DNA of 51,259 bases from an uncultured Actinomyces sp. (GCA_964351035.1 CAYGMM010000001.1:1604-52862); one strand, 5' to 3'; counted from the stretch's first letter, positions 15,766 through 51,259 are shown. Numbers and translations are program-made. Notes: a model not told the origin generated them from the sequence alone.

Positions 15766-15876
15766 GGGTCAAGAGCGCCAGCATCAAGCCCCGGCTCGCT
15801 GGCCGGCAACCCTCGGCAACCGCGGTGGGGTGCCCCGGGTGAGGACTAGGTCCGCAACAGCGGGCAAGCGCGGGTC
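15766..15876 (+). promoter_or_regulatory. SAM-IV class riboswitch in the metK leader
   Basis: gggtcaagagcgccagc-atcaagccccggctcgctggccggcaaccctc...cgcggtggggtgccccgggtga...gcgggcaagcgcgggtc matches, block for block, the mycobacterial SAM-IV sequence as I remember it. It ends about 12 nt before the gaaggg SD of metK. Confidence 0.8.
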
Positions 15877-15895: not shown

Positions 15896-17101
15896 ATGCT
15901 TGTGTCACGTCGCCTGTTCACCTCCGAATCCGTTACTGAAGGTCATCCGGACAAGATGGCCGATCAGATCAGCGATGCGATCCTCGACAGTCTGCTCGAG
16001 CAGGACCCGCGCAGTCGTGTCGCGGTGGAGACCTTGTTGACGACGGGCCAGGTGCACGTGGCCGGCGAGGTCACGACCGATGGATACGCGGATGTCATGA
16101 ACATCGTGCGCGATGTTGTCCTGGAGATCGGCTATGACCATTCGGAGAAGGGATTTGATGGCGAGTCCTGCGGCGTTTCGGTGTCGATCGGTGCGCAGTC
16201 CCCGGATATCGCCCAGGGCGTCAACGATGCGATCGAAGAGCGTGAGGGGCACAGTGCCGATCCACTCGACCGTCAGGGCGCGGGCGACCAGGGGTTGATG
16301 TTCGGGTACGCCAGCACCGATACCCCGAGCCTGATGCCGCTGCCGATCTCGCTGGCCCATCGACTCGCCGAGCAGCTCACCGCCGTACGCAAGGACGGCA
16401 CGATGGGCTACCTCCGTCCCGATGGCAAGACGCAGGTGACGATCGAGTACGACGAGCAGGACAAGCCGCTGCGGATCGACACCATCGTGGTGTCCAGTCA
16501 GCACGCCAAGGATGTCGATCTCGATGCCACGCTGGCGCCGGAGATCCGTGCCAACGTCGTTGAGCCGATCCTGGCGCAGGTGGATCTGCCCAGCGACGAC
16601 TTCCGACTCCTGGTCAATCCGACGGGTCGCTTCGAGGTGGGCGGGCCGATGGGCGACGCCGGTCTCACGGGACGCAAGATCATCGTGGACACCTACGGGG
16701 GGATGGCACGTCACGGCGGCGGAGCCTTCAGCGGCAAGGACCCGTCGAAGGTGGACCGCTCAGCGGCCTACGCCATGCGCTGGGTGGCCAAGAATGTCGT
16801 GGCGGCCGGACTCGCCGATCGCTGCGAGGTACAGGTGGCTTACGCCATCGGCAAAGCGCATCCGGTGGGGGTCTTCGTCCAGACGTTCGGGACCGGCGTG
16901 CTGCCCGATGAGCAGATCCAAGAGGCGGTGCTCGAGGTGTTCGACCTGCGTCCGGCCGCGATCATCCGCGACCTGGATCTGCTGCGGCCGATCTATCGGC
17001 CGACGGCGGCGTACGGCCACTTCGGTCGGGAGTTGCCGAACTTCACGTGGGAGCGAACTGATCGCGCCGACGCGCTGAAGGCGGCTGCCGGCGCGAAGTA
17101 G
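15896..17101 (+). CDS. metK: S-adenosylmethionine synthetase
   Basis: [44 protein letters not shown]. The start is ATG 15896 or GTG 15902. The ORF-track start 15830 lies inside the riboswitch. Confidence 0.95.
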
Positions 17102-17173
17102 GTGTGCGCTGAAGGCGGCTGCCGGCGCGAAGTAGGTGTGCGCTGAAGGCGGCTGCCGGCGCGAAGTAGGTGT
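17072..17173. repeat. perfect tandem repeat, 3 x 34 bp, duplicating the metK 3' end including its TAG stop
   Basis: The unit gcgctgaaggcggctgccggcgcgaagtaggtgt occurs at 17072-17105, 17106-17139 and 17140-17173 with no mismatch. Confidence 0.92.
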
Positions 17174-17177
17174 GCGA

Positions 17178-17295
17178 TTAGCGGGACAAATGGTCGATAC
17201 GCCCCTCTCAGAGGCCTCCATCGACCGTTTCTCCCGCTAAGCGGGACAAATGGTCGACAGGGCGGTTGCGTGGGCGATTATCGACCGTTTCTCCC
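17178..17295. repeat. palindromic intergenic element R3 (two tandem hairpins) between convergent metK and the GGDEF-like gene
   Basis: gcgggacaaatggtcga occurs at 17181 and 17241. Its near-complement tcgaccgtttctccc occurs at 17221 and 17281. Confidence 0.75.
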
Positions 17296-17323: not shown

Positions 17324-18544
17324 CTAGGCCGTCACGGGTCGGCTGGCGGATGCGCGCGCGATGAGTTCGTCCGCGCTCAGCGAGGCGGGATCAACGTCAA
17401 TCGCGTGTACGGACAGGTGGACGGGGCGCTTGCCGAGCGCAACACCTGAGTCATCCAATGCCCGGCGAACGCCATCGGCCAACGTCGAACGATCGACGGT
17501 CCCGACGCCCACAGCGGCGAACGCGCCCGCCGTCCATCGGGCGACCAGAGCCCCCTCGGGCAGCGCCGTGCGCAGCGATCGATACGCCGCGGTGATGACC
17601 TCGTCGCCGTACCCGATGCCGTAGCGGTCGTTGATCTCGAGCAGTTCGTCGATGGTCGCGACGACGCCGTACACCGGTTGGGCAGAGGTCTGGGCGGCAC
17701 TCCACACGGCTGGCGCGAGATCGGTGAGGCCGCGCCGCGACAGTGCGCCCGTGAGGGGATCTGACGTCAGCATGGTGGCGATGCGCGCCTGCTCGGCGGC
17801 GATCCGATCGACTCCGATGATGCGCAGTTGGAGCAGAATCGCGCCGACGGCCAATGCGGTCAGGGCGGCGAGCGCCCAGCCAGTGGTCTGGACGGTCTCG
17901 ATCAGGTACCCGGCAATGACGATGCCCACGAGCGCGGCACCGCCGCCGATCATGCCGGCCGGCCATGACATGGCGATCGGCACGAGCCCGACGAGGATGA
18001 CCAGGGCGTAGGCGAGCGTGACCGGGTTGTCTTCTTCCACTGCCTGCCACGACACGAAGCCCACAACGCCGGCCATCCCTGCCGCCCAGAGCCACGGCAG
18101 CGCCCGCGGCGCGATCGCCCGACGGCCCGCCACCTGGGCAACCGCGAGTACGACGAGAGCAAAGAGCGCTCCGGCGATATCCGAGACGACGGATGCCTGC
18201 GGGGAGGTGAAGACCAGGAGGAGGGTCAGGACGATGGCGACGGCACCGCTGAGCGTCAGCGCGATGGGGATCGTTTGGTAAGCGCTCTCGAGGCGTAGCC
18301 GCGAGGCAGGATCGCTTAACTGGCGCAGTTCGGGGGCGGGTTGGGTCACATTGACCTCCTCCGGGTCGAGATCTGGGCGCAGCGGCGCAAGGCGATGAGG
18401 TTGAACCGGTCGAGGCCAGGGCACCAAACGCCCCGCGGTGAGACCGAGATACACGAGGGTGTTGATGCCGACGAAGATCAAGAAGACCCGGAAGCCGGTG
18501 GAGGTCAGCAGGCTCTCTGGTAGGAGGAGACCGGTAGGCATCAT
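17324..18544 (-). CDS. polytopic membrane protein with C-terminal degenerate GGDEF domain
   Basis: Starts MMPTGLLLPE, with ATGATG overlapping the TGA of the upstream GT2 gene. Several hydrophobic segments are followed by DPLTGALSRRG...IDELLEINDRYGIGYGDEVI...RWTAGAFAAVG, so GGDEF is replaced by TAGAF and other catalytic positions are changed. The ORF-track N-terminal extension to 18937 overlaps the GT2 gene and is rejected. Confidence 0.8.
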   Translation of the reverse strand: MMPTGLLLPESLLTSTGFRVFLIFVGINTLVYLGLTAGRLVPWPRPVQPHRLAPLRPDLDPEEVNVTQPAPELRQLSDPASRLRLESAYQTIPIALTLSGAVAIVLTLLLVFTSPQASVVSDIAGALFALVVLAVAQVAGRRAIAPRALPWLWAAGMAGVVGFVSWQAVEEDNPVTLAYALVILVGLVPIAMSWPAGMIGGGAALVGIVIAGYLIETVQTTGWALAALTALAVGAILLQLRIIGVDRIAAEQARIATMLTSDPLTGALSRRGLTDLAPAVWSAAQTSAQPVYGVVATIDELLEINDRYGIGYGDEVITAAYRSLRTALPEGALVARWTAGAFAAVGVGTVDRSTLADGVRRALDDSGVALGKRPVHLSVHAIDVDPASLSADELIARASASRPVTA

Positions 18545-32489: not shown

Positions 32490-32861
32490 ATGGCACGCGT
32501 GAAGAGGGCCGTCAACGCCCAGAAGAAGCGCCGTGAGGTCTTGGAGCAGGCCAGCGGATACCGCGGTCAGCGCTCCCGGCTCTACCGCAAGGCGAAGGAG
32601 CAGGTCACCCACTCGCTCGTCTACGCCTACAACGATCGCAAGGACCGCAAGGGCGACTTCCGTCGTCTGTGGATCCAGCGCATCAACGCCGCCGCTCGGT
32701 CGCGCGGCATGACGTACAACCGCTTCATCCAGGGCCTGAAGGCCGCGGATGTCCAGGTGGACCGCCGTATGCTCGCCGAGCTCGCGGTGAGCGATCCCAC
32801 GGCTTTCGATGCGCTCGTGGACATCGCTCGGGGCGCACTTCCGGCGACCGCCTCCGCCTGA
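32490..32861 (+). CDS. rplT: 50S ribosomal protein L20
   Basis: [18 protein letters not shown]...[11 protein letters not shown]. Confidence 0.96.
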
Positions 32862-32863
32862 CC

Positions 32864-33694
32864 ATGGCCGACCTCACATCGACGAGGTCGCCTCGGGTGG
32901 CGGAGATCCGCCGACTGCACGACCGAAGGCACCGCGCGCAGCGCGGTGCCTTCGTCGTCGAAGGACCCCAGGCGGTCGAGGCGGCGCTGCACTCGGCGGT
33001 GAGCGAGCTCTACGTCACGCGCGAGGCCGCCGATCGCTACGCGACGCTGGTGGAGCGGGCGCGTGCGCAGGGTGCGCAGGTCCATACCGCCAGCGAGGAC
33101 GTCCTCGCGGCGATGGCCGAAACCCGACAGCCGCAGGGACTGATTGCCGTGTGCCCGCTGGTGACGGTCGGGCTCGAGGCCGCACTTGCCGCTGCGACGA
33201 AGCGCCCCCTGCGATGTGTGGTGCTTTTGGACCGGGCCAATGACCCCGGCAACGCCGGCACGGTGATTCGTACCGCTGATGCACTGGGCGTGGGTGCGGT
33301 GATCTTCACCGAGGGGTCGGTGGATCCGCACAATGGCAAGGTGGTGCGCTCGACGGCGGGTTCGCTGTTCCACATTCCCATCGCGGCCGATATTGCTGTG
33401 TCAGACGCGATCGGTGCGCTCGTTGCCGCCGGGTACGTGCTTGTCGCCGCCGATGCGCAGGGGAGTGTGCACCTCGGCACGATGGGGGCCGAGGCGGTGC
33501 TCTGTGGCCCGGTGGCGTGGGTCATCGGCAACGAGGCGCACGGCGTCCATGAGGATCTGCGCGCGGCCGCCCACGAGACGGTGTCGATTCCCATGTCGGG
33601 CGGCGCCGAGAGCCTCAACATGGCCGCGGCCGCGGCCATCTGCCTCTACGCCACCCGCATCGCCCAACACCCCAACGCCGTTTCTCCCGCTTAG
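32864..33694 (+). CDS. TrmH/SpoU-family RNA 2'-O-methyltransferase (TsnR-like)
   Basis: DPGNAGTVIRTADALG, VIGNEAHGV, IPMSGGAESLNMAAAAAICLY. ATG 32864 lies 2 nt after the rplT stop. Confidence 0.85.
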   Translation: MADLTSTRSPRVAEIRRLHDRRHRAQRGAFVVEGPQAVEAALHSAVSELYVTREAADRYATLVERARAQGAQVHTASEDVLAAMAETRQPQGLIAVCPLVTVGLEAALAAATKRPLRCVVLLDRANDPGNAGTVIRTADALGVGAVIFTEGSVDPHNGKVVRSTAGSLFHIPIAADIAVSDAIGALVAAGYVLVAADAQGSVHLGTMGAEAVLCGPVAWVIGNEAHGVHEDLRAAAHETVSIPMSGGAESLNMAAAAAICLYATRIAQHPNAVSPA

Positions 33695-33748
33695 CGGGAC
33701 AGATGGTCGATGGCAGCCCGCCAGCGGCCCGTATCGACCATTTCTCCC
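33680..33748. repeat. palindromic intergenic element R4, overlapping the last codons and stop of the trmH-like gene
   Basis: gtttctcccgcttagcgggacagatggtcga ... tcgaccatttctccc. The left part is nearly identical to the centre of R3 (cgtttctcccgctaagcgggacaaatggtcga). Confidence 0.7.
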
Positions 33749-33882
33749 ACCACGGGAGCCCGCCAAGAAGGGGCAGGGACGAAAGTCCCCACGACACGGG
33801 TCGTTCGGCGACCGGTCACGCGGTAACGGTGCGCGCACACTCGAAGCATTCGGGCTAACCGAGCCCCGAGGGAGGCACGCGC

Positions 33883-34647
33883 ATGTCCTACTACCGAATG
33901 CCGATTTTGGAGGAGAAGGGCTATGTCGTCCTCTCCCGCGACAACCGGGTCATCGAACCCCGCGAGTGGACCGATCTGGAGTGGGTCGATTGGAAGTCCT
34001 CCGGGGACACACGCTTTGCTCCGCTGGCATCGGCGTACGGCGACATCGAGTGCAACGCCTTCTGGCACTTCGACCCACCGAAGCCGGACAAGGACGGGGT
34101 GTGGATTGACTCCCAGGTAGAGATCGCGCCCACCCTGGCCGAGATCGCCCGCGAGCCAGAGGCCAACGTCGGCCGCGTGCGCATCATCGAGTTGCAGCCC
34201 AACTCCTACGCCGATGCGCTCTATAACTCCCACCTCGACGACAACAACCGCATCAACCCGGACGGCGAGGGCTGGATCGTCCGTGGCTTCCGCAACCTGA
34301 GCGATGACGGTGAGTCCTTCATGGTGCTGCGCGAGGACATCGATGACCCCAGCACCGAGACGCGCATCGCGCTCCCGGCCGGCGCAAGGATCATCGTTGA
34401 CTCCGAGCGCATGTGGCACTCGGTGTGGCACAACGGCGACGAGCCGCGCTACTGCCTGATCACATCCTTCGAGTCTGGCCCCGCGCTGGAGAAGTGGATC
34501 TTCGAGAACGACCCCACCCTTGATGTGGAGATGGCCGACCTCGACGAGGACTTCGCGCGCGAGCAGGAGGAGCAGGCCCAGGAGCGCCGGGCCAAGCGCA
34601 CCGCCCACTACGGGTACGACCCGACCTCGGTCCGATCCGAGGCCTAG
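33883..34647 (+). CDS. uncharacterised protein, paralog A (HxD...H...R cupin / 2OG-Fe(II)-oxygenase-like pattern, tentative)
   Basis: ATG with a gagggagg SD 7 nt upstream. Paralogous to 34783..35544 along the whole length. Conserved SHLDDNNR, ALPAGARIIVDSERMWHSVWHNGDEPRYCLITS. Charged C-terminal tail ending SEA. Confidence 0.85.
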   Translation: MSYYRMPILEEKGYVVLSRDNRVIEPREWTDLEWVDWKSSGDTRFAPLASAYGDIECNAFWHFDPPKPDKDGVWIDSQVEIAPTLAEIAREPEANVGRVRIIELQPNSYADALYNSHLDDNNRINPDGEGWIVRGFRNLSDDGESFMVLREDIDDPSTETRIALPAGARIIVDSERMWHSVWHNGDEPRYCLITSFESGPALEKWIFENDPTLDVEMADLDEDFAREQEEQAQERRAKRTAHYGYDPTSVRSEA

Positions 34648-34782
34648 GCACCGGCAACCACCAGGGTGCGGAAGTCCACGTGAATCGCCCGCGTCGGCGC
34701 GTCCGGAATAGGTCCCGGGGCGTCGATGGGGGACAATGTCAGCGGCCCACGGGGGCACAGAACGCTGAAGGGACCGTCGTCG

Positions 34783-35544
34783 ATGGACTACATCAAGCTC
34801 GCTGAACTGGACGAGACCGGCTACGTCGTTCTCGAAAACTACGACCAGGCGGCCGATCCGGCCGAGTGGGAGGAGATCGAGTTCGTCGATTGGAAGTCCT
34901 CCGGCGAGACGCGCTTCGCCCCGCTGGCCTCGGCATACGGCGAACTCGAGTGCAACGGCTTCTGGCACCACAACCCGCCCAAGACCGACAAGGACGGTGT
35001 CTGGGTCGAATCCAACATCGCCAAGGCGCCCGTGCTCAAGGCCCGCGCTGAGGAGCCGGGAGCCAATATTGGCCGCTGCCGTGTGATCGAACTCCAGCCC
35101 AACACCTACGTCGATTCGATCTGGAACCTCCACCTCGACGACAACAACCGCCTCAACCCTGAGGGCACCGGGTGGATCGTCCGCGGGTTCTTCAACCTGA
35201 CCGACAACCCCGACTCGTACATGATCCTGCGCGAGGACAAGGACGACCCCAGCACCGAGACACGCATCCCGCTGCCTGCCGGTGCCCAGGTGATCATCGA
35301 CACCCAGCGCCTCTGGCACGCGGTGTGGCACAACGGCGACGAGCCGCGCTACTGCCTGATCACCTCCTGGGAGTCGGGCCCCGAGCTCGAGGCCTACATC
35401 CAGAGCAAGAATCCGGTCTCCAAGGTCGAGAACGCCCCCCTGGACGAGGCGGTCATCGCCGAGGCCCAGACGGAGGTCGCCCGGCGACGCGCTGCCCGCG
35501 AGGCGCAGTCCGGAGCCATGACCGATGTCATGAGCGAGGCCTGA
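34783..35544 (+). CDS. uncharacterised protein, paralog B (same family as 33883..34647)
   Basis: ATG 34783 with a gaaggga SD 9 nt upstream aligns with the paralog A start. LHLDDNNR, PLPAGAQVIIDTQRLWHAVWHNGDEPRYCLITS. The tail also ends SEA. Confidence 0.85.
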   Translation: MDYIKLAELDETGYVVLENYDQAADPAEWEEIEFVDWKSSGETRFAPLASAYGELECNGFWHHNPPKTDKDGVWVESNIAKAPVLKARAEEPGANIGRCRVIELQPNTYVDSIWNLHLDDNNRLNPEGTGWIVRGFFNLTDNPDSYMILREDKDDPSTETRIPLPAGAQVIIDTQRLWHAVWHNGDEPRYCLITSWESGPELEAYIQSKNPVSKVENAPLDEAVIAEAQTEVARRRAAREAQSGAMTDVMSEA

Positions 35545-35640
35545 GGCGACTTCGCCGAGGCCGCCCCGCGCCGGTAGCGTGGGGTAGTACACCGTCGCGA
35601 CCGGGCGATCTTGCCTGGTGCGCGCCCGACGATAGGGAAG

Positions 35641-36576
35641 ATGCCTGTGTCGACGCCTGCTTCCGTGAGTGTCTCCGAGGACGACGTCCTCGATGCGCTC
35701 GAGGCCGAGGCCATCCACGTGTACCGCGAGGTCGCTGGAGCGTTCCGCCGCCCGGTCCTGCTGTACTCGATCGGCAAGGACTCCTCGGTCCTGCTGCACC
35801 TCGCCCGCAAGGCCTTCCACCCTGCCCCGATTCCGTTCAAGGTGATGCACATCGACACCACCTGGAAGTTCCGGGAGATGATCGAGTTCCGCGACCGTAT
35901 GGCGGAGGAACTCAGCCTCGATCTCAAGGTGCAGACCAACCTGAAGGCGGTCGCCGAGGGCGTCACCCCATTCTCCCATGGCACGCATGAGTACACCCGC
36001 ATCATGAAGACCGTGGCCCTGCGCGAAGGTCTCGATGAGTTACAGGCGGACTGCGCGATCGGTGGTGCCCGTCGTGATGAGGAGAAGTCGCGCGCCAAGG
36101 AGCGCATCTTCTCCCTGCGCGAGCCCGGCCACCGCTGGGATCCGCGCAAGCAGCGCCCCGAGTTCTGGCGTACGGCGAACACCATGCTGGCCGAAGGGCA
36201 GACGATGCGCGCCTTCCCGATCAGCAACTGGACCGAGTTCGACGTGTGGCGCTACATCCGACGCGAGAACATCCCGATCGTCGACCTGTATTTCGCGCGC
36301 GAACGGCCCGTGGTCGAGCGCGAGGGTGCCTTGATCATGGTCGATGACGAGCGACTGCCGCTGCGCGAGGGCGAAACTCCGCAGCACCTGAGCGTGCGCT
36401 TCCGCACGCTGGGCTGCTACCCGCTGTCCGGTGCGGTGGAGTCCACCGCGGCCGTCGATATCGACACTCTCATCGCCGAGATGCTGGAGTCCAACGTCTC
36501 CGAGCGCGCCGGGCGCCTCATCGACGGCGAAGGCAGCGGCTCCATGGAGTCCAAGAAGGCGGAGGGCTACTTCTAA
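35641..36576 (+). CDS. cysD: sulfate adenylyltransferase subunit 2
   Basis: PAPS-reductase-like fold [43 protein letters not shown]. Alternative TTG start at 35611. Confidence 0.9.
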
Positions 36577-38465
36577 TGACCGCTCTGCTCGAACGCTCAT
36601 CCGGCATCGACATCACCCCGGTCGTTCGCCTCGTCACCTGCGGCTCCGTTGATGACGGCAAGTCGACGCTCATCGGCCGACTTCTGGCCGAGACCGGCTC
36701 CATCCCGGAGGACCAGCTGGAGTACGCGCGGCGCACCCGTCGCGGCGGCTCGATGGTTCCGGTCGGCGAGATCGACTTCTCGCTCCTCACCGACGGCCTT
36801 GAGGCCGAGCGTGAGCAGGGCATCACCATCGACGTGGCCTACCGCCACATGTATCTGCCGAGCGGTCGGCGCGTCATCATCGCCGATGCGCCCGGTCACG
36901 AGCAGTACACCCGCAACATGGCCGTGGCGGCCTCCAACGCCGAGGTTGCCGTTCTCCTCGTCGATGCAGCCCGCGGGGTGCGTCCCCCGCCCTTCCGCCA
37001 TCTCACGGTGGTCGCCCTCAGGGGTGTGCGCAGCGTCATCATCGCCATCAACAAGATGGACCTCGTCGGCTACGAGCACGCGACGTATGAGGAACTGTCT
37101 GGCCAGGTCCGGGCGGCAGCGGCGCGACTCGGCCTCGATGAGGTACTGACGATCCCGGTGAGTGCCTTCGCTGGCGACAACGTCACGTCGCCGACCACGC
37201 ACATGTCCTGGTGGCATGGGCCGTCCCTGCTGCAGGCGCTGCAGGACTGGACCCCACCCGAGGGCACGTCGGAGATCCCGTTCCGGCTTCCGGTGCAGTT
37301 CATCATCCGCTCGGGTGGCAACTTCCGCGGCTACGCCGGCACCGTCGCCGGTGGCGTCGTGCGTCCGGGCGATCCGATCGTGGTGGCTGACTCCGGTCAG
37401 ACCGCTTCGGTGGAGCGCATCGTGGGCTTCTCCGGTGACATGGCCGAGGCGCGCACCGGTGATGCGGTGACCATCACGCTCGATCGTGAGGTCGACGTGA
37501 CACGCGGCGACCTACTCGCCGCGGCAGGCACCACGCCGTCGGGCGACACCGCTTGGCCGCAGCCGGCAGACCGATTCGCCGCCGACGTCGTATGGGTGGG
37601 CGAAGAGTCGCTCATGCACGGCCGCTCGTACCTATTGGCCGTCGGCCCGCGCACCGTGCCAGCGACCGTCACGGTCGTCCGTCACCGTCTCGACGTTGTC
37701 TCCGGGCAAAAACTGGCCGCGCGCGTTCTCGACATGAACGACATTGGTCGGATCGAGGTCGCCACCGACACCCCGATCCCGATGGACACCTACGCCGCAT
37801 GTCGCGATACCGGCGGATTCCTTCTCATTGATCGACTCACCGCCGACACCGTTGCCGCCGGCATGGTGACTCACTCGCTGCGTCGTTCGTTGAACGTCGT
37901 TCCGCATGAGTACGAGGTCGACCGCGCAGCACGTGCACGGTTGAAGCATCAGACGCCGCGCGTGGTCTGGCTGACCGGTCTATCCGGCTCGGGCAAGTCC
38001 ACGGTGGCCGATGCCCTCGAGCGTCGCCTGCACGGTCTCGGTATGCACACCTTCGTGCTCGACGGTGACAACGTCCGTACCGGCATCAACAAGGATCTCG
38101 GCTTCACCCCCGAGGACCGAGCCGAAAACGTCCGGCGCGTCGCGGAGGCAGCGAAGTTGATGCTGGAGGCCGGCCTCATCGTCATCGTCGCGCTCATCTC
38201 GCCGTTCCGCCAGGACCGTCGAGCTGCTCGCGAGATCTACGAGGACGGCGAGTTCCTCGAGGTGTACGTCGACACTCCGGTCGAGATGTGCGCCGAGCGC
38301 GACCCGAAGGGCCTGTACGCGAAGGCCAAGGCGGGCACCCTGCCGAACATGACCGGACTCGGTCAGGAGTACGAGCCCCCGGAGAACCCTGACGTCCATC
38401 TCGACGGCACCGCGTCCATCGAGGACAACGTCGACATCCTCGTTCAACGCCTGACGGGTGACTGA
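36576..38465 (+). CDS. cysNC: bifunctional sulfate adenylyltransferase subunit 1 (GTPase) / adenylylsulfate kinase
   Basis: GTPase G1 CGSVDDGKST, G3 DAPGHEQY, G4 NKMD. C-terminal APS kinase LTGLSGSGKST, LDGDNVR, ISPF, DPKGLY. TAATG overlap with cysD. Confidence 0.92.
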   Translation: MTALLERSSGIDITPVVRLVTCGSVDDGKSTLIGRLLAETGSIPEDQLEYARRTRRGGSMVPVGEIDFSLLTDGLEAEREQGITIDVAYRHMYLPSGRRVIIADAPGHEQYTRNMAVAASNAEVAVLLVDAARGVRPPPFRHLTVVALRGVRSVIIAINKMDLVGYEHATYEELSGQVRAAAARLGLDEVLTIPVSAFAGDNVTSPTTHMSWWHGPSLLQALQDWTPPEGTSEIPFRLPVQFIIRSGGNFRGYAGTVAGGVVRPGDPIVVADSGQTASVERIVGFSGDMAEARTGDAVTITLDREVDVTRGDLLAAAGTTPSGDTAWPQPADRFAADVVWVGEESLMHGRSYLLAVGPRTVPATVTVVRHRLDVVSGQKLAARVLDMNDIGRIEVATDTPIPMDTYAACRDTGGFLLIDRLTADTVAAGMVTHSLRRSLNVVPHEYEVDRAARARLKHQTPRVVWLTGLSGSGKSTVADALERRLHGLGMHTFVLDGDNVRTGINKDLGFTPEDRAENVRRVAEAAKLMLEAGLIVIVALISPFRQDRRAAREIYEDGEFLEVYVDTPVEMCAERDPKGLYAKAKAGTLPNMTGLGQEYEPPENPDVHLDGTASIEDNVDILVQRLTGD

Positions 38466-39575
38466 GTGTCTGCTCCTAACAAGTCCTTCGATCCGGTGAG
38501 CGTGTCGAGTCTGGAGCCCGAGGCTGTACAGGCGATGGTCGATGCGGCCATCGCCGACATTGCGGCGGCCGCCGACCTCGATGAACTCAAGGCAGCACGG
38601 CTCGCTCATGCGGGCGACCGGTCGCCGCTGGCTCTCGCCAATCGGGAGATCGGCGCGCTGCCCCCTGCGGCCAAGGCCGAGGTCGGCAAGCGAATGGGCG
38701 AGGCCCGCGGCCGGGTCAAGGCTGCGTTGGATGTCCGCACGACCGAGCTCGAGGCCGAGCGCGATGCGCGCGTGCTCGTCGAGGAAGCCGTCGATGTCAC
38801 CCTGCCTGTCGATCGCCGCACGACGGGTGCCCGCCACCCGTTGACGACGTTGATGGAGCGCATGTCGGATGTCTTCATCGCTATGGGCTACGAGGTGGCC
38901 GAAGGGCCCGAGGCCGAAGCCGAGTGGTTCAACTTCGATGCCCTGAATGTCCCTCCGGACCATCCGGCCCGCACGATGCAGGACACCTTCTTTGTGGGCA
39001 GTGAGGACAGCGGCGTCGTCCTGCGCACGCAGACCTCGCCCATTCAGCTGCGTGCCATGTTGGAACGCGAGTTGCCCATCTACGTCGTGGCACCGGGTCG
39101 GGTCTTCCGGACCGACGAACTCGACGCCACCCACACGCCGGTCTTCCACCAGATCGAAGGGCTGGCGATCGACGAGGGCATCACGATGGCTGATCTCAAG
39201 GGCACCCTCGAGCACCTGGCAACGGCGATGTTCGGGGAGGGCGTGCGGGTCCGTCTGCGCCCGTCGTACTTCCCCTTCACCGAGCCGAGCGCCGAGATGG
39301 ACCTGGAGTGTTTCGTCTGTCGCGGTGCGTCCGTGGGCGACCCTGCCCGGCCCTGTCGCACCTGCTCGAGCGAGGGCTGGATCGAGTGGGGCGGCTGCGG
39401 CATGGTCAACCCGCGGGTGTTGCGCGCCGCCGGCATCGACACGTCGCGCTACTCCGGATTCGCCTTTGGCATGGGAGTTGAGCGCACACTGATGTTCCGC
39501 CACGGCGTCACCGACATGCGCGACATGGTCGAGGGTGACGCGCGCTTCACGGCGGCATTCGGAATCGAGGTCTGA
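38466..39575 (+). CDS. pheS: phenylalanine-tRNA ligase alpha subunit
   Basis: HPARTMQDTFF, FRTDELDATHTPVFHQIEG, GFAFGMGVER. GTG 38466 is the base immediately after the cysNC TGA. Confidence 0.93.
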   Translation: MSAPNKSFDPVSVSSLEPEAVQAMVDAAIADIAAAADLDELKAARLAHAGDRSPLALANREIGALPPAAKAEVGKRMGEARGRVKAALDVRTTELEAERDARVLVEEAVDVTLPVDRRTTGARHPLTTLMERMSDVFIAMGYEVAEGPEAEAEWFNFDALNVPPDHPARTMQDTFFVGSEDSGVVLRTQTSPIQLRAMLERELPIYVVAPGRVFRTDELDATHTPVFHQIEGLAIDEGITMADLKGTLEHLATAMFGEGVRVRLRPSYFPFTEPSAEMDLECFVCRGASVGDPARPCRTCSSEGWIEWGGCGMVNPRVLRAAGIDTSRYSGFAFGMGVERTLMFRHGVTDMRDMVEGDARFTAAFGIEV

Positions 39576-42070
39576 TGCGGATTCCCGTTTCCTGGCTGCG
39601 CGAGATGGTCGCGCTGCCGGTCGAGGTGAGCGGCCGCGAAATTGCCGAACGCATCACTAACGCCGGCCTCGAGGTCGAGTCGGTCGAGACCCTCGGCGGT
39701 GGTACGAGTGGTCCGCTCATCGTGGGTCGAGTCGAGTCCATCGAGGAGTTGACCGAGTTCAAGAAGCCCATTCGCTACTGCCAGGTCGACGTCGGACCCG
39801 AGCACGGGGGAGTGCGGGGCATCGTCTGCGGTGCGCGCAACTTCAGCCCGGGGGATCTCGTCGTCGTGGCCCTTCCAGGCGCCGTGCTCCCGGGTGATTT
39901 CACCATTAGCGCACGCAAGACCTATGGCCATGTGTCCGACGGCATGATCTGCAGCGAGCGCGAGCTCGGACTCGGCGAGGACCACAGCGGCATCATGGTG
40001 CTCGAGGCCGGCCAGGTCGGCGATGACGCGGCGGCGGCCATTGGTCTCGGTGAAGAGATTCTCGACATCGCTGTGACGCCGGACCGCGGATATGCCCTGA
40101 GCGTCCGCGGCGTTGCCCGCGAAGTCGCGTCTCTCTTCGGATTGCCCTTCGATGATCCCGGGCAGACCCTGGCCCCCCTGCCAGCGCCGTCCGATGCTGC
40201 TGCGCCCTGGCCCTGCTCGGTCGACGACCCCACCATGTGCGAGATGTTCACCCTGCGTCGCATCACCGGTTTCAATCCGGCGGCGCCGACACCGGAGTGG
40301 ATGAAGCGTCGACTTTCCGCCTGTGGCATGCGTCCGGTGTCTCTCGCCGTTGACATCACCAACTACGTCATGCTCGAACTCGGTCAGCCGCTCCATGCCT
40401 TCGACGGCGCCAAGTTGCTCGGTGCCGTCCGACCGGGACGCGCCGGCGATGACTCCGACTTCGAAACTCTCGACCATGTACGCCGCACGCTGGATTCCAG
40501 CGATGTCGTGATTCGCGATGACACCGGCGTCATCGGCCTCGCGGGGACGATGGGCGGACTGAATTCCGAGATTGATGATGAGTCCACCGACATCGTTCTC
40601 GAGGCGGCGTGGTTCGTGCCGGAGGAGGTCGCGCGCACTGCGCGTCGTCACAAGCTATCGAGCGAGGCGTCACGGCGTTTCGAACGCGGTGTCGATCGCG
40701 TCCTTGCGCCCTACGCCTCGGCGCGCGCCGCGGCGCTGCTCCTTGAATTTGGCGGGGGAACCTACGACGGCATGACCGCCTGGGAGGCGCCGTACACCTC
40801 GGTCGACATCGCCATGTCCGCCGACCTCCCGGGGCGCACCGCCGGGATGGACATCGACCGCGAGACGACGGTCGACCTGCTCGAACGCGTGGGTTGCACC
40901 GTTGCTGGCGAGGCGGATCTCACCGTGCGGGCCCCCTCCTGGCGTCCGGACCTGACGGACCCGGCCGACCTCGTCGAAGAGGTCGTGCGTCTCGTGGGCT
41001 ACGACGCGCTGCCCTCGCGCCTGCCGATGGCGCCGGCCGGCTATGGACTGACCCGGAACCAGCGCATGCGCCGCCGACTCGGCTACGCGCTCGCCGGCCT
41101 GGGCGTCGAGGAGATCTTGAGTTACCCGTTCGTCGGTGCTGCCGAACTCGACGGGCTCGGTCTATCCGAGGACGACCCGCGGCGCCGCGGCCCTTTGCTC
41201 GCCAACCCGCTCTCCGATGAACAACCGATGCTGCGGACGACGATGCTGCCGGGCCTTTTCGCCGCTCTACGGCGCAACATAGCTCGCGGCAATGTCGATC
41301 TGGCTCTCGGCGAACTTGGTCGCGTGTTCACACTTCGCGACGGGCAGTCACCGACCGGAATCACTGATCCGCCCCGCCCCGGTGTGGCCGATCGGCCGAG
41401 TGAAGATCATCTGCAGGCGCTCCATGACCTCCTGCCCGATCAGCCGACACATCTCGGTGTCGTGCTCGCCGGCAACCGTGAGCGCGCGGGCTGGTGGGGC
41501 CCGGGGCGTGCTGCCGACTGGGCGGATGCCGTGGAGATCGCCGTGGCCGTCGCAGGCGTGCTCGGCGTTGAGCTCTTGGTCGAGCAGGCCGAGGAGGCTC
41601 CCTTCCACCCGGGTCGCACGGCGCGGTTGTCCGCTGGCGAGGTCGTCGTCGGGTTCGCGGGGGAGTTGCACCCGCGGGTCGTTGCCGCGCTGGACCTGCC
41701 GGCCCGCACCTGTGCGCTGGAACTCGACGTCGATGCGCTGCTGTCCGTGGCGGCCGATGTCGCGCCCGCACCGGAGGTGGGCACTCAGCCCATCGCGAAG
41801 GAGGATCTCGCGCTCGTCGTCGATGCGGCGGTTCCCGCGGGCGCCGTCGAGCAGGCGCTGCGTGATGGTGCCGGTGACCTCCTCGAGGATGTCCGACTCT
41901 TCGACGTCTATGTGGGCCCCCAGGTGCCGCAGGGATCCCGTTCGCTGGCGTTCGCCCTTCGGCTGCGCGCACCGGATCGCACCCTGTCGGCCGACGACAT
42001 CGCCGCGGTGCGCGCGGCTGCGGTCGCCGAGGCAGCGGCCCGACACGGCGCCACACTCCGCGGCACGTAG
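39575..42070 (+). CDS. pheT: phenylalanine-tRNA ligase beta subunit
   Basis: MRIPVSWLRE. 831 aa with tRNA-binding, B3/4, B5 and FDX-ACB domain order. TGATG overlap with pheS. Confidence 0.95.
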   Translation: MRIPVSWLREMVALPVEVSGREIAERITNAGLEVESVETLGGGTSGPLIVGRVESIEELTEFKKPIRYCQVDVGPEHGGVRGIVCGARNFSPGDLVVVALPGAVLPGDFTISARKTYGHVSDGMICSERELGLGEDHSGIMVLEAGQVGDDAAAAIGLGEEILDIAVTPDRGYALSVRGVAREVASLFGLPFDDPGQTLAPLPAPSDAAAPWPCSVDDPTMCEMFTLRRITGFNPAAPTPEWMKRRLSACGMRPVSLAVDITNYVMLELGQPLHAFDGAKLLGAVRPGRAGDDSDFETLDHVRRTLDSSDVVIRDDTGVIGLAGTMGGLNSEIDDESTDIVLEAAWFVPEEVARTARRHKLSSEASRRFERGVDRVLAPYASARAAALLLEFGGGTYDGMTAWEAPYTSVDIAMSADLPGRTAGMDIDRETTVDLLERVGCTVAGEADLTVRAPSWRPDLTDPADLVEEVVRLVGYDALPSRLPMAPAGYGLTRNQRMRRRLGYALAGLGVEEILSYPFVGAAELDGLGLSEDDPRRRGPLLANPLSDEQPMLRTTMLPGLFAALRRNIARGNVDLALGELGRVFTLRDGQSPTGITDPPRPGVADRPSEDHLQALHDLLPDQPTHLGVVLAGNRERAGWWGPGRAADWADAVEIAVAVAGVLGVELLVEQAEEAPFHPGRTARLSAGEVVVGFAGELHPRVVAALDLPARTCALELDVDALLSVAADVAPAPEVGTQPIAKEDLALVVDAAVPAGAVEQALRDGAGDLLEDVRLFDVYVGPQVPQGSRSLAFALRLRAPDRTLSADDIAAVRAAAVAEAAARHGATLRGT

Positions 42071-51173: not shown

Positions 51174-51259
51174 CTTAACGGAGAGTTTGATCCTGGCTCA
51201 GGACGAACGCTGGCGGCGTGCTTAACACATGCAAGTCGAACGGTGAAAGCGGAGCTTGC
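51174..51259 (+). rRNA. rrs: 16S ribosomal RNA, 5' end only (continues beyond window)
   Basis: The universal 5' sequence agagtttgatcctggctcaggacgaacgctggcggcgtgcttaacacatgcaagtcgaacgg starts at 51182. The mature 5' end is estimated a few nt upstream. Confidence 0.95.

Follow-up and report, generated by a model that had tools for sequence, protein, structure and literature searches.

Between a SpoU-type RNA methyltransferase gene and the phenylalanyl-tRNA synthetase genes pheS and pheT, a stretch of DNA from an uncultured Actinomyces sp. (GCA_964351035.1 CAYGMM010000001.1:1604-52862; 51,259 nucleotides, hereafter the window) carries four further genes, namely two paralogs, here called A and B, followed by cysD and cysNC. 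An earlier interpretation of this DNA, which we refer to as the sequence-only reading, had taken these four genes for an inserted block that encodes a dedicated system linked to 3'-phosphoadenosine 5'-phosphosulfate (PAPS), with the two paralogs as its possible functional partners. The explanation that we prefer, and that we consider probable, is a different one: A, B and cysD-cysNC are three adjacent yet separate units that occupy a variable space between two operons of core translation genes, not one PAPS system. A PAPS system is unsupported because the two paralogs, which we predict to be oxygenases, persist without cysDNC, because an enzyme that uses PAPS was seen neither in the window nor in the annotated surroundings of one homologous locus (L001), because the units carry separate conserved upstream motifs, because cysDNC resembles an ordinary stand-alone sulfate-activating unit, and because tight packing at this locus also joins the unrelated cysNC and pheS.

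Under our explanation, cysD-cysNC would encode an ordinary actinobacterial sulfate-activating complex, in which CysD (ATP sulfurylase), CysN (GTPase) and CysC (kinase of adenosine 5'-phosphosulfate, APS) would together yield APS and PAPS, and it would probably be co-transcribed with pheST from a promoter in the spacer between B and cysD. A and B would be soluble Fe(II)/2-oxoglutarate (2OG) hydroxylases that bind iron via H117, D119 and H179 and 2OG via R189, and either gene would have a promoter and operator region to itself. B would be the anchored gene of the SpoU/pheS gap, whether cysDNC is present or not, and A would be a mobile sister copy, accompanied at every location by its own upstream palindrome.

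Distribution of A, B and cysDNC

The gene neighbourhoods were followed through 162 related loci, covered by two reciprocal surveys. The first compared an alignment of the oxygenases with one genome per species and returned at least 472 relatives, of which the best 80 loci, together with two direct look-ups, were analysed; the second was a CysD search of metagenome contigs. The full order of the window, SpoU-A-B-cysD-cysNC(-pheST), recurs in 7 loci. The order SpoU-A-B-pheST without cysDNC was found in 14 loci (plus one SpoU-A-B locus without a nearby pheS), SpoU-B-cysD-cysNC in 13 loci of the first survey, and SpoU-B-pheST in 5. In the second survey cysDNC lay beside pheS or SpoU in 13 loci, and B was directly upstream of it in every one of these. 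Over both surveys, B-cysD-cysNC next to pheS with no A between SpoU and B accounts for 26 loci, although three contigs begin too late to show this. Elsewhere, A stands alone in other contexts in 32 loci and B does so in 10 loci, of which six belong to named Microbacterium genomes. Within the SpoU/pheS gap, B is present in 33 loci with cysDNC and in 19 without it; in total, B lacks an adjacent cysDNC in 29 loci and A lacks one in 46. In a single metagenome-assembled genome (MAG), A and SpoU-B-cysDNC-pheS belong to two different contigs (L041, L070). In the surveyed loci, then, cysDNC at this locus always comes with B, but B also comes without an adjacent cysDNC.

Clustering of the genes around the 41 "solo" oxygenase loci yielded no recurrent partner common across groups. 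The neighbours are lineage-specific only, and include genes for ATP-grasp-like and DUF1707-like proteins, ferritin and an M14 peptidase, and in Microbacterium for DUF262-like and phosphotransferase system proteins. The 10 kb on either side of the L001 homologue, annotated with Pfam, yielded no sulfotransferase.

Between the window and the related loci, B is 68-87% identical, as compared with 69-89% for PheS (one truncated high-scoring segment pair gives 64%), 36-62% for SpoU and 51-74% for PheT in the same loci, and in loci without cysDNC it is equally conserved (70-81%). Since its identity is on par with that of PheS, B is under constraint of the kind expected for core genes, with or without cysDNC beside it. 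The arrangements follow phylogeny in a neighbour-joining tree of PheS: one clade holds B-cysDNC-pheS, with A present or absent in close relatives, and a second holds L001 (A-B-cysDNC), a group with A-B-pheS and a group with B-pheS. In a lower-GC subclade the string SpoU-B-cysD-cysNC-pheS is packed in an operon-like manner, SpoU ending 21 nt before B in L093.

A pair of predicted Fe(II)/2OG hydroxylases

The sequence-only reading had recognised the two unknown genes as paralogs, and the proteins are indeed 60% identical when aligned; in a tree, A and B fall into two separate and old clades. A longer version of B, opening at the ATG at 34726, is unsupported, and orthologues begin MDY or MSY. The AlphaFold model of A, built on a 56-sequence alignment, has a predicted local distance difference test (pLDDT) score of 93.6 and a predicted template modelling (TM) score of 0.91, and supersedes a model from 12 close sequences that reached a pLDDT of only 59. 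Foldseek returned 210 PDB matches to A (E <= 0.001); the 50 that were listed consist entirely of Fe/2OG oxygenases. The best fold match is Streptomyces proline 3-hydroxylase (1e5r; TM 0.54), L-proline cis-4-hydroxylase (4p7x) reaches 0.52, and proline hydroxylases overall span 0.51-0.54. Human AspH (5apa) scores 0.40 and YcfD (4liu) 0.33, and phage "Asp/Asn/Pro hydroxylase" proteins match the model at 0.59-0.60.

Across 16 sequences, down to 32% identity, D119 and H183 are invariant and H117 and H179 nearly so, as is R189, which lies 10 residues past H179; both paralogs keep all five residues. In A, the core is a double-stranded beta-helix (jelly-roll) and the iron-binding triad HxD...H is in place, and by analogy R189 would bind the C5-carboxylate of 2OG. 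We infer that A and B are catalytically competent hydroxylases, an activity predicted from these features, and the guess of the sequence-only reading that the paralogs perform oxygen chemistry agrees well with the Fe/2OG oxygenase fold. The double-stranded beta-helix, the HxD...H triad, the solubility and the length (~250-290 aa) are shared with Streptomyces proline 3-hydroxylase (1E5R), Mesorhizobium L-proline cis-4-hydroxylase (4P7X) and the PF05118/AspH group. An arginine ten residues beyond the distal histidine is likewise common to A, B and proline 3-hydroxylase. A and B differ from proline hydroxylases and AspH in that the TM scores are only 0.5-0.6, identity is 14-17% and PF05118 stays below its gathering threshold, and in that the A/B clade has a conserved basic C-terminal helix and tail. 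This element, with the tail RRAARTAxYGYDPTxVxSEA, occupies residues 222-254 of A (34546-34647) and is conserved in both the A and the B clade, and is missing from distant family members.

Against PF05118 (Asp_Arg_Hydrox), the scores are 18.2 bits for A and 16.9 for B, neither of which reaches the gathering threshold of 22.6; matches at E < 1 occur in 7 of 16 family members, the best at 1.4e-4. By sequence, A and B are best described as remote relatives of PF05118 and not, by the curated criterion, as members. Searches of NCBIfam, PHROGs and PADLOC gave zero matches for either protein, those of PDB sequences, by phmmer with A and with a profile of 16 sequences, brought up no meaningful match, and Pfam gave no match of A or B to JmjC/Cupin_4. 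At 90% identity the family matches 1491 clusters, most of which come from metagenomes of freshwater and from MAGs that bear the label Candidatus Nanopelagicales, and at 50% identity it matches 340 clusters (E <= 0.001), many of which are fragments; its members are named "hypothetical" or "aspartyl/asparaginyl beta-hydroxylase domain-containing" in their sources. It is a compact, strongly conserved and actinobacterial-restricted family without a characterised member. One distant member, P0145 (38% identical; L163-L166), lies downstream of genes for a PadR regulator, an FAD-dependent monooxygenase and an uncharacterised protein of 200 aa, a context that may suggest small-molecule oxidation chemistry in that branch; the distant homologue P0126 sits on an 819-nt contig, and the two contexts were otherwise uninformative. 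As to substrate, our best guess is hydroxylation of a small, amino-acid-like molecule or of a protein side chain, in the service of core physiology because conservation equals that of PheS.

The cysD-cysNC unit and its junction with pheST

The product of cysD scores above the cut-offs of TIGR02039 (456.8 bits; cut-off 396.6) and NF009214 (455; cut-off 413), and that of cysNC above the cut-off of NF004035 for bifunctional CysN/CysC (778.4 versus 715 bits), with Pfam matches to APS_kinase (2.1e-63) and GTP_EFTU (6.4e-38). The likely start of cysD is the ATG at 35641, with AGGGAAG as ribosome-binding site, in an open reading frame (ORF) that opens with the TTG at 35611. CysNC carries GSVDDGKST, DAPGH and NKMD of the GTPase as well as the GLSGSGKST P-loop, LDGDNVR and ISPF, and the APS-kinase domain of CysC is apparently intact, so that PAPS could be made, as the sequence-only reading had supposed. 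At about residues 133-140 of CysN (near 36970-37000), the window reads RPPPFRH...VVALRGV where 14 of 14 relatives have RPQT(F/H/Y)RH...V(C/S)ALMGV; this change replaces a Gln-Thr conserved in translational GTPases and is either a sequence error or a genuine GTPase change.

In 15 related loci, among them the nearest relatives of the window, cysNC and pheS are 0-6 nt apart; in the others the junction measures -17 to 87 nt. Given these tight junctions, cysD-cysNC-pheS-pheT is most simply a single operon. Other CysD relatives, equally similar (72-82%), belong to stand-alone cysD-cysNC pairs, four of which are annotated (L085, L090, L098, L101) and have unrelated housekeeping neighbours; neither cysH nor a sulfotransferase was seen beside cysD-cysNC in these four. 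Such pairs share the organisation of Mycobacterium tuberculosis, where cysDNC is a two-gene operon (PMC3141025). Like the M. tuberculosis genes (Rv1285-Rv1286), cysD-cysNC of the window comprises two genes, has the CysN-CysC fusion, lacks an adjacent cysH or sirA and would have APS and PAPS as its product (PMC3141025). Unlike that operon, the window unit abuts pheS at 0 nt, probably on a transcript shared with pheST, and cysD-cysNC at this locus is always preceded by oxygenase B.

Conserved motifs upstream of A, B and cysD

A, B and cysD are each preceded by a different conserved motif. Upstream of A lies the 14-bp palindrome GGGACC-WW-GGTCCC, followed by GGGyCGTTCGG and then by a -10-like GACAAT or GACACT. 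The palindrome is found ~95-115 nt upstream of A-type genes, both in linked loci (L003-L008) and before 14 unlinked A genes in unrelated contexts (L009, L014, L015, L018, L021, L026, L033, L040, L042, L043, L045, L050, L052, L053), and it occurs once without mismatch in the window. The GGGACCAAGGTCCC palindrome is best called a candidate operator. An A-type palindrome also stands upstream of B in L055 (~167 nt) and L084 (~161 nt), both of which are without A, and this looks like the leftover of a deletion of A from an A-B arrangement. Upstream of B, a GTGACGCACGTGACACCCGCGTGCCC box is followed by GGGGGAGAATGG or GGGACAATG, 37-77 nt before the gene in most close relatives. Alignment of 19 spacers between B and cysD revealed GGTAGCGTGGAGG conserved amid divergent sequence, and in the relatives a CCCGCGG/CCGCGGG hairpin follows it. 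Rfam contained no known RNA family matching 33600-35700 at E <= 1, and a scan for sigma-70 and terminator consensus sequences gave nothing useful in this high-GC DNA. A promoter of SigH/SigR type or of the extracytoplasmic function type was considered for the conserved boxes and dropped, the spacings being unfit.

Weighing the explanations

Several points weigh against the explanation by separate units. Where cysDNC adjoins pheS, B is immediately upstream in 33 of 33 related loci and in the window, and a SpoU-cysD arrangement without B was seen in none of the surveyed loci; such long-term adjacency could reflect function over inertia. In L093 (5174-5995/5992-6903) and L097 (2009-2851/2848-3786) the stop of B and the start of cysD overlap by 4 nt, from which it would follow that B is co-transcribed with cysDNC in some lineages. 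Furthermore, the separate promoters of A, B and cysD are assigned from motifs, and the label of a housekeeping assimilatory copy from similarity and mycobacterial precedent. The constant adjacency and the 4-nt overlap, together with the apparently intact CysC domain, speak for B (with or without A) as a partner of CysDNC, whether by hydroxylation followed by PAPS sulfation, by oxygenolytic sulfate release or by modification of the CysN GTPase; cultivated Nanopelagicales, moreover, do not have complete assimilatory sulfate reduction (PMC12817590), so that a retained cysDNC might serve sulfation. We regard such a partnership as distinctly unlikely. B is kept in the gap at 70-81% identity in the 19 loci without cysDNC and is solo in 10 others (six in Microbacterium), a promoter-like conserved box parts it from cysD in the subclade of the window, and neither the window nor the annotated surroundings of L001 hold a sulfotransferase. 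There is no likeness to TauD or AtsK, as the paralogs have no Pfam match to the TauD family (PF02668) at E <= 1 and both proteins are absent from the top 50 Foldseek PDB matches of A. Because pheS is packed equally tightly on cysNC, packing here does not imply shared function, and the Nanopelagicales isolates belong to low-GC genera, unlike the lineage of the window with its 67% GC (PMC12817590). The dedicated PAPS-linked system of the sequence-only reading is unsupported by this evidence, to which the 32 unlinked A loci and the differing upstream motifs are to be added. The block is shared by close relatives, and transcription of the paralogs appears to be separate, both of which are among the findings that the sequence-only reading had itself named as telling against it, so that in part it is contradicted on its own terms. 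The position of B could alternatively reflect a role in translation, with a ribosomal protein, EF-Tu, phenylalanyl-tRNA synthetase (PheRS) or tRNA as the target of hydroxylation. B lies between SpoU and pheS in 49 surveyed loci and the window, under labels that include Nanopelagicales, Jatrophihabitantaceae and Aquiluna; its conservation equals that of PheS; YcfD is among the fold matches; and bacterial 2OG oxygenases are known to hydroxylate ribosomal protein L16 (YcfD) and EF-Tu (PMC4295552, PMC4543633). This proposal, too, we hold to be unlikely, since 10 B-type and 32 A-type genes stand in unrelated contexts without a recurring partner and the best fold matches are small-molecule proline hydroxylases, YcfD reaching a TM score of just 0.33. 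Furthermore, the gap between SpoU and pheS has also taken in cysDNC, whose function is unrelated, and hence collects unrelated genes. A and B resemble E. coli YcfD/RoxA (L16) and Pseudomonas PPHD (EF-Tu) as Fe/2OG oxygenases, and B sits in a translation neighbourhood, but YcfD is a JmjC/Cupin_4 protein with extra domains. Readings that link B to translation, or to CysN and EF-Tu as targets, draw on neighbourhood and precedent and are speculative. In the most specific form, to which we give a low probability, B would be a protein hydroxylase acting on a target of the translational-GTPase type or of the translation machinery, such as CysN, EF-Tu, PheRS or a ribosomal protein, and in freshwater actinobacteria would tie oxygen, iron and 2OG status to sulfate activation and Phe-tRNA charging; if true, this would explain both the PheS-like conservation of B and its lasting place between SpoU and (cysDNC-)pheST across orders.

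That the four genes form a recently acquired accessory island in a translation gene array is by now largely refuted, and we consider it very improbable. In the ancestral actinobacterial order pheST follows a SpoU-type gene, relatives differ in which genes lie between SpoU and pheS, and a palindrome, R4, stands at the left border; each of these would fit an island. R4, which the sequence-only reading had pointed out, is real and has two 16-nt arms (33696-33711 and 33733-33748) directly past the SpoU stop and a folding energy of -29.7 kcal/mol (z = -2.5), but it is not a mark of a border. Two tandem copies of the same family follow metK (17183-17235 and 17243-17295), with the arms GCGGGACAAATGGTCGA / TCGACCGTTTCTCCC conserved and the ~21-nt loops differing, and a search for the family gave 7 matches against 0.73 expected. 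Since further copies lie after metK, R4 is not an insertion scar; it is a dispersed intergenic hairpin, probably either a terminator or an element like the repetitive extragenic palindromes. A tRNA-His gene (17474-17544, minus strand) lies just downstream of the metK palindromes and is the sole tRNA gene of the window. GC content of the block (0.65-0.68) equals that of the flanks, GC content at third codon positions is 0.83-0.89 against 0.80-0.87 in the flanks, and no integrase or mobility genes, flanking tRNA or border direct repeats were found at the block. Moreover, the same gene order recurs in relatives with PheS only 69-89% identical, its distribution agrees with the pheS tree, and the more similar PheS is, the more similar are the oxygenases and cysD. 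The insertion of the sequence-only reading is thus unsupported if taken as a recent or mobile one: within this lineage the block is old and vertically inherited, and is "extra" only by comparison with other actinobacteria.

Layout of the locus and the rest of the window

Coordinates refer to the whole window, and genes were taken from an ORF map and translations (Table 1). The map places the SpoU gene, A, B, cysD, cysNC, pheS and pheT in this order on the plus strand, and bears out the four same-strand genes between the methyltransferase gene and pheS that the sequence-only reading had listed. Its further observations on the layout are likewise confirmed: cysD and cysNC overlap in ttcTAATGacc, the TGA of cysNC has its last base at 38465 and the GTG of pheS its first at 38466, and Pfam scans, in which infC and rplT precede the SpoU gene, agree with a location between infC-rpmI-rplT-SpoU and pheST. 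Similarly, no cysH, sulfite reductase or sulfotransferase was found among the ~40 window ORFs scanned with Pfam, as had been claimed. The start of the SpoU gene is uncertain, the ORF opening with the GTG at 32669, and its NCBIfam matches to RlmB/TsnR are below cut-off. The counterpart of pheT in L001 has tRNA_bind, B3_4, B5 and FDX-ACB domains.

Table 1. Features of the SpoU-pheT region, in window coordinates
Feature	Coordinates	Strand	Basis
SpoU/TrmH-family RNA 2'-O-methyltransferase (TsnR/RlmB-like)	32864..33694	+	Pfam SpoU_methylase 1.8e-34 and substrate-binding domains
Palindromic element R4	33696..33748	none	16-nt arms, 21-nt variable loop
GGGACGAAAGTCCC palindrome, candidate operator of A	33776..33789	none	conserved upstream of A-type genes
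Paralog A, 254 aa, predicted Fe(II)/2OG-dependent hydroxylase	33883..34647	+	AlphaFold (AF2) fold, Foldseek, conserved residues
GGGGGACAATG, -10-like box, candidate promoter region of B	34728..34738	+	motif conservation
Paralog B, 253 aa, second predicted Fe(II)/2OG hydroxylase	34783..35544	+	60% identity to A, orthologue synteny
GGTAGCGTGGGG, -10-like box (TAGCGT), candidate promoter for cysD-cysNC-pheST	35573..35584	+	spacer alignment
cysD, sulfate adenylyltransferase small subunit	35641..36576	+	TIGR02039 and NF009214 above cut-off
cysNC, CysN GTPase fused to CysC APS kinase	36576..38465	+	NF004035, Pfam APS_kinase and GTP_EFTU
pheS, GTG start	38466..39575	+	TIGR00468 298.6 bits
pheT, start overlaps pheS stop	39575..42070	+	ORF coordinates; tblastn match to pheS neighbour in relatives

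The rest of the window is core housekeeping, with pyk, pyrR, pyrB, carAB, metK, priA, def, fmt, rsmB, rpe, ribBA, hisG, infC and rplT to the left of the block and pheST, argC/B/D, argH, tyrS and, running off the window edge, the 5' end of a 16S rRNA gene (51175-51259) to the right. Directly upstream of metK is a SAM-IV (S-adenosylmethionine) riboswitch (97.1 bits, 15767-15876, plus strand), which overlaps the mechanical ORF start of metK at 15830, so that the true start is probably later. A perfect 34-nt tandem repeat of 3.1 copies (17072-17176) spans the metK stop region and is either a genuine duplication of the 3' end of the gene or an assembly artefact.

Significance

NodP-NodQ-NodH clusters offer a known case in which a PAPS-making pair like CysD/CysNC stands beside accessory genes. 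The present locus differs from them in having no sulfotransferase, either in the window or within +/-10 kb of L001, and in that its accessory genes are oxygenases also found without cysDNC. The tempting reading of a new PAPS system is thus removed as unsupported. What the locus does offer is a pair of predicted Fe/2OG hydroxylase families, uncharacterised and very strongly conserved, which occur in freshwater actinobacteria of high abundance and have homologues in Microbacterium, a cultivable genus, and a candidate operator, GGGACC-WW-GGTCCC, that travels with the A-type gene. In the lineage of the window, expression of pheST, which is essential, seems to be driven from the sulfate-activation operon. 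If genomes of this lineage are without APS/PAPS and sulfite reductases, like those of cultivated Nanopelagicales, their retention of cysDNC would suggest that APS or PAPS serves a purpose other than assimilation.

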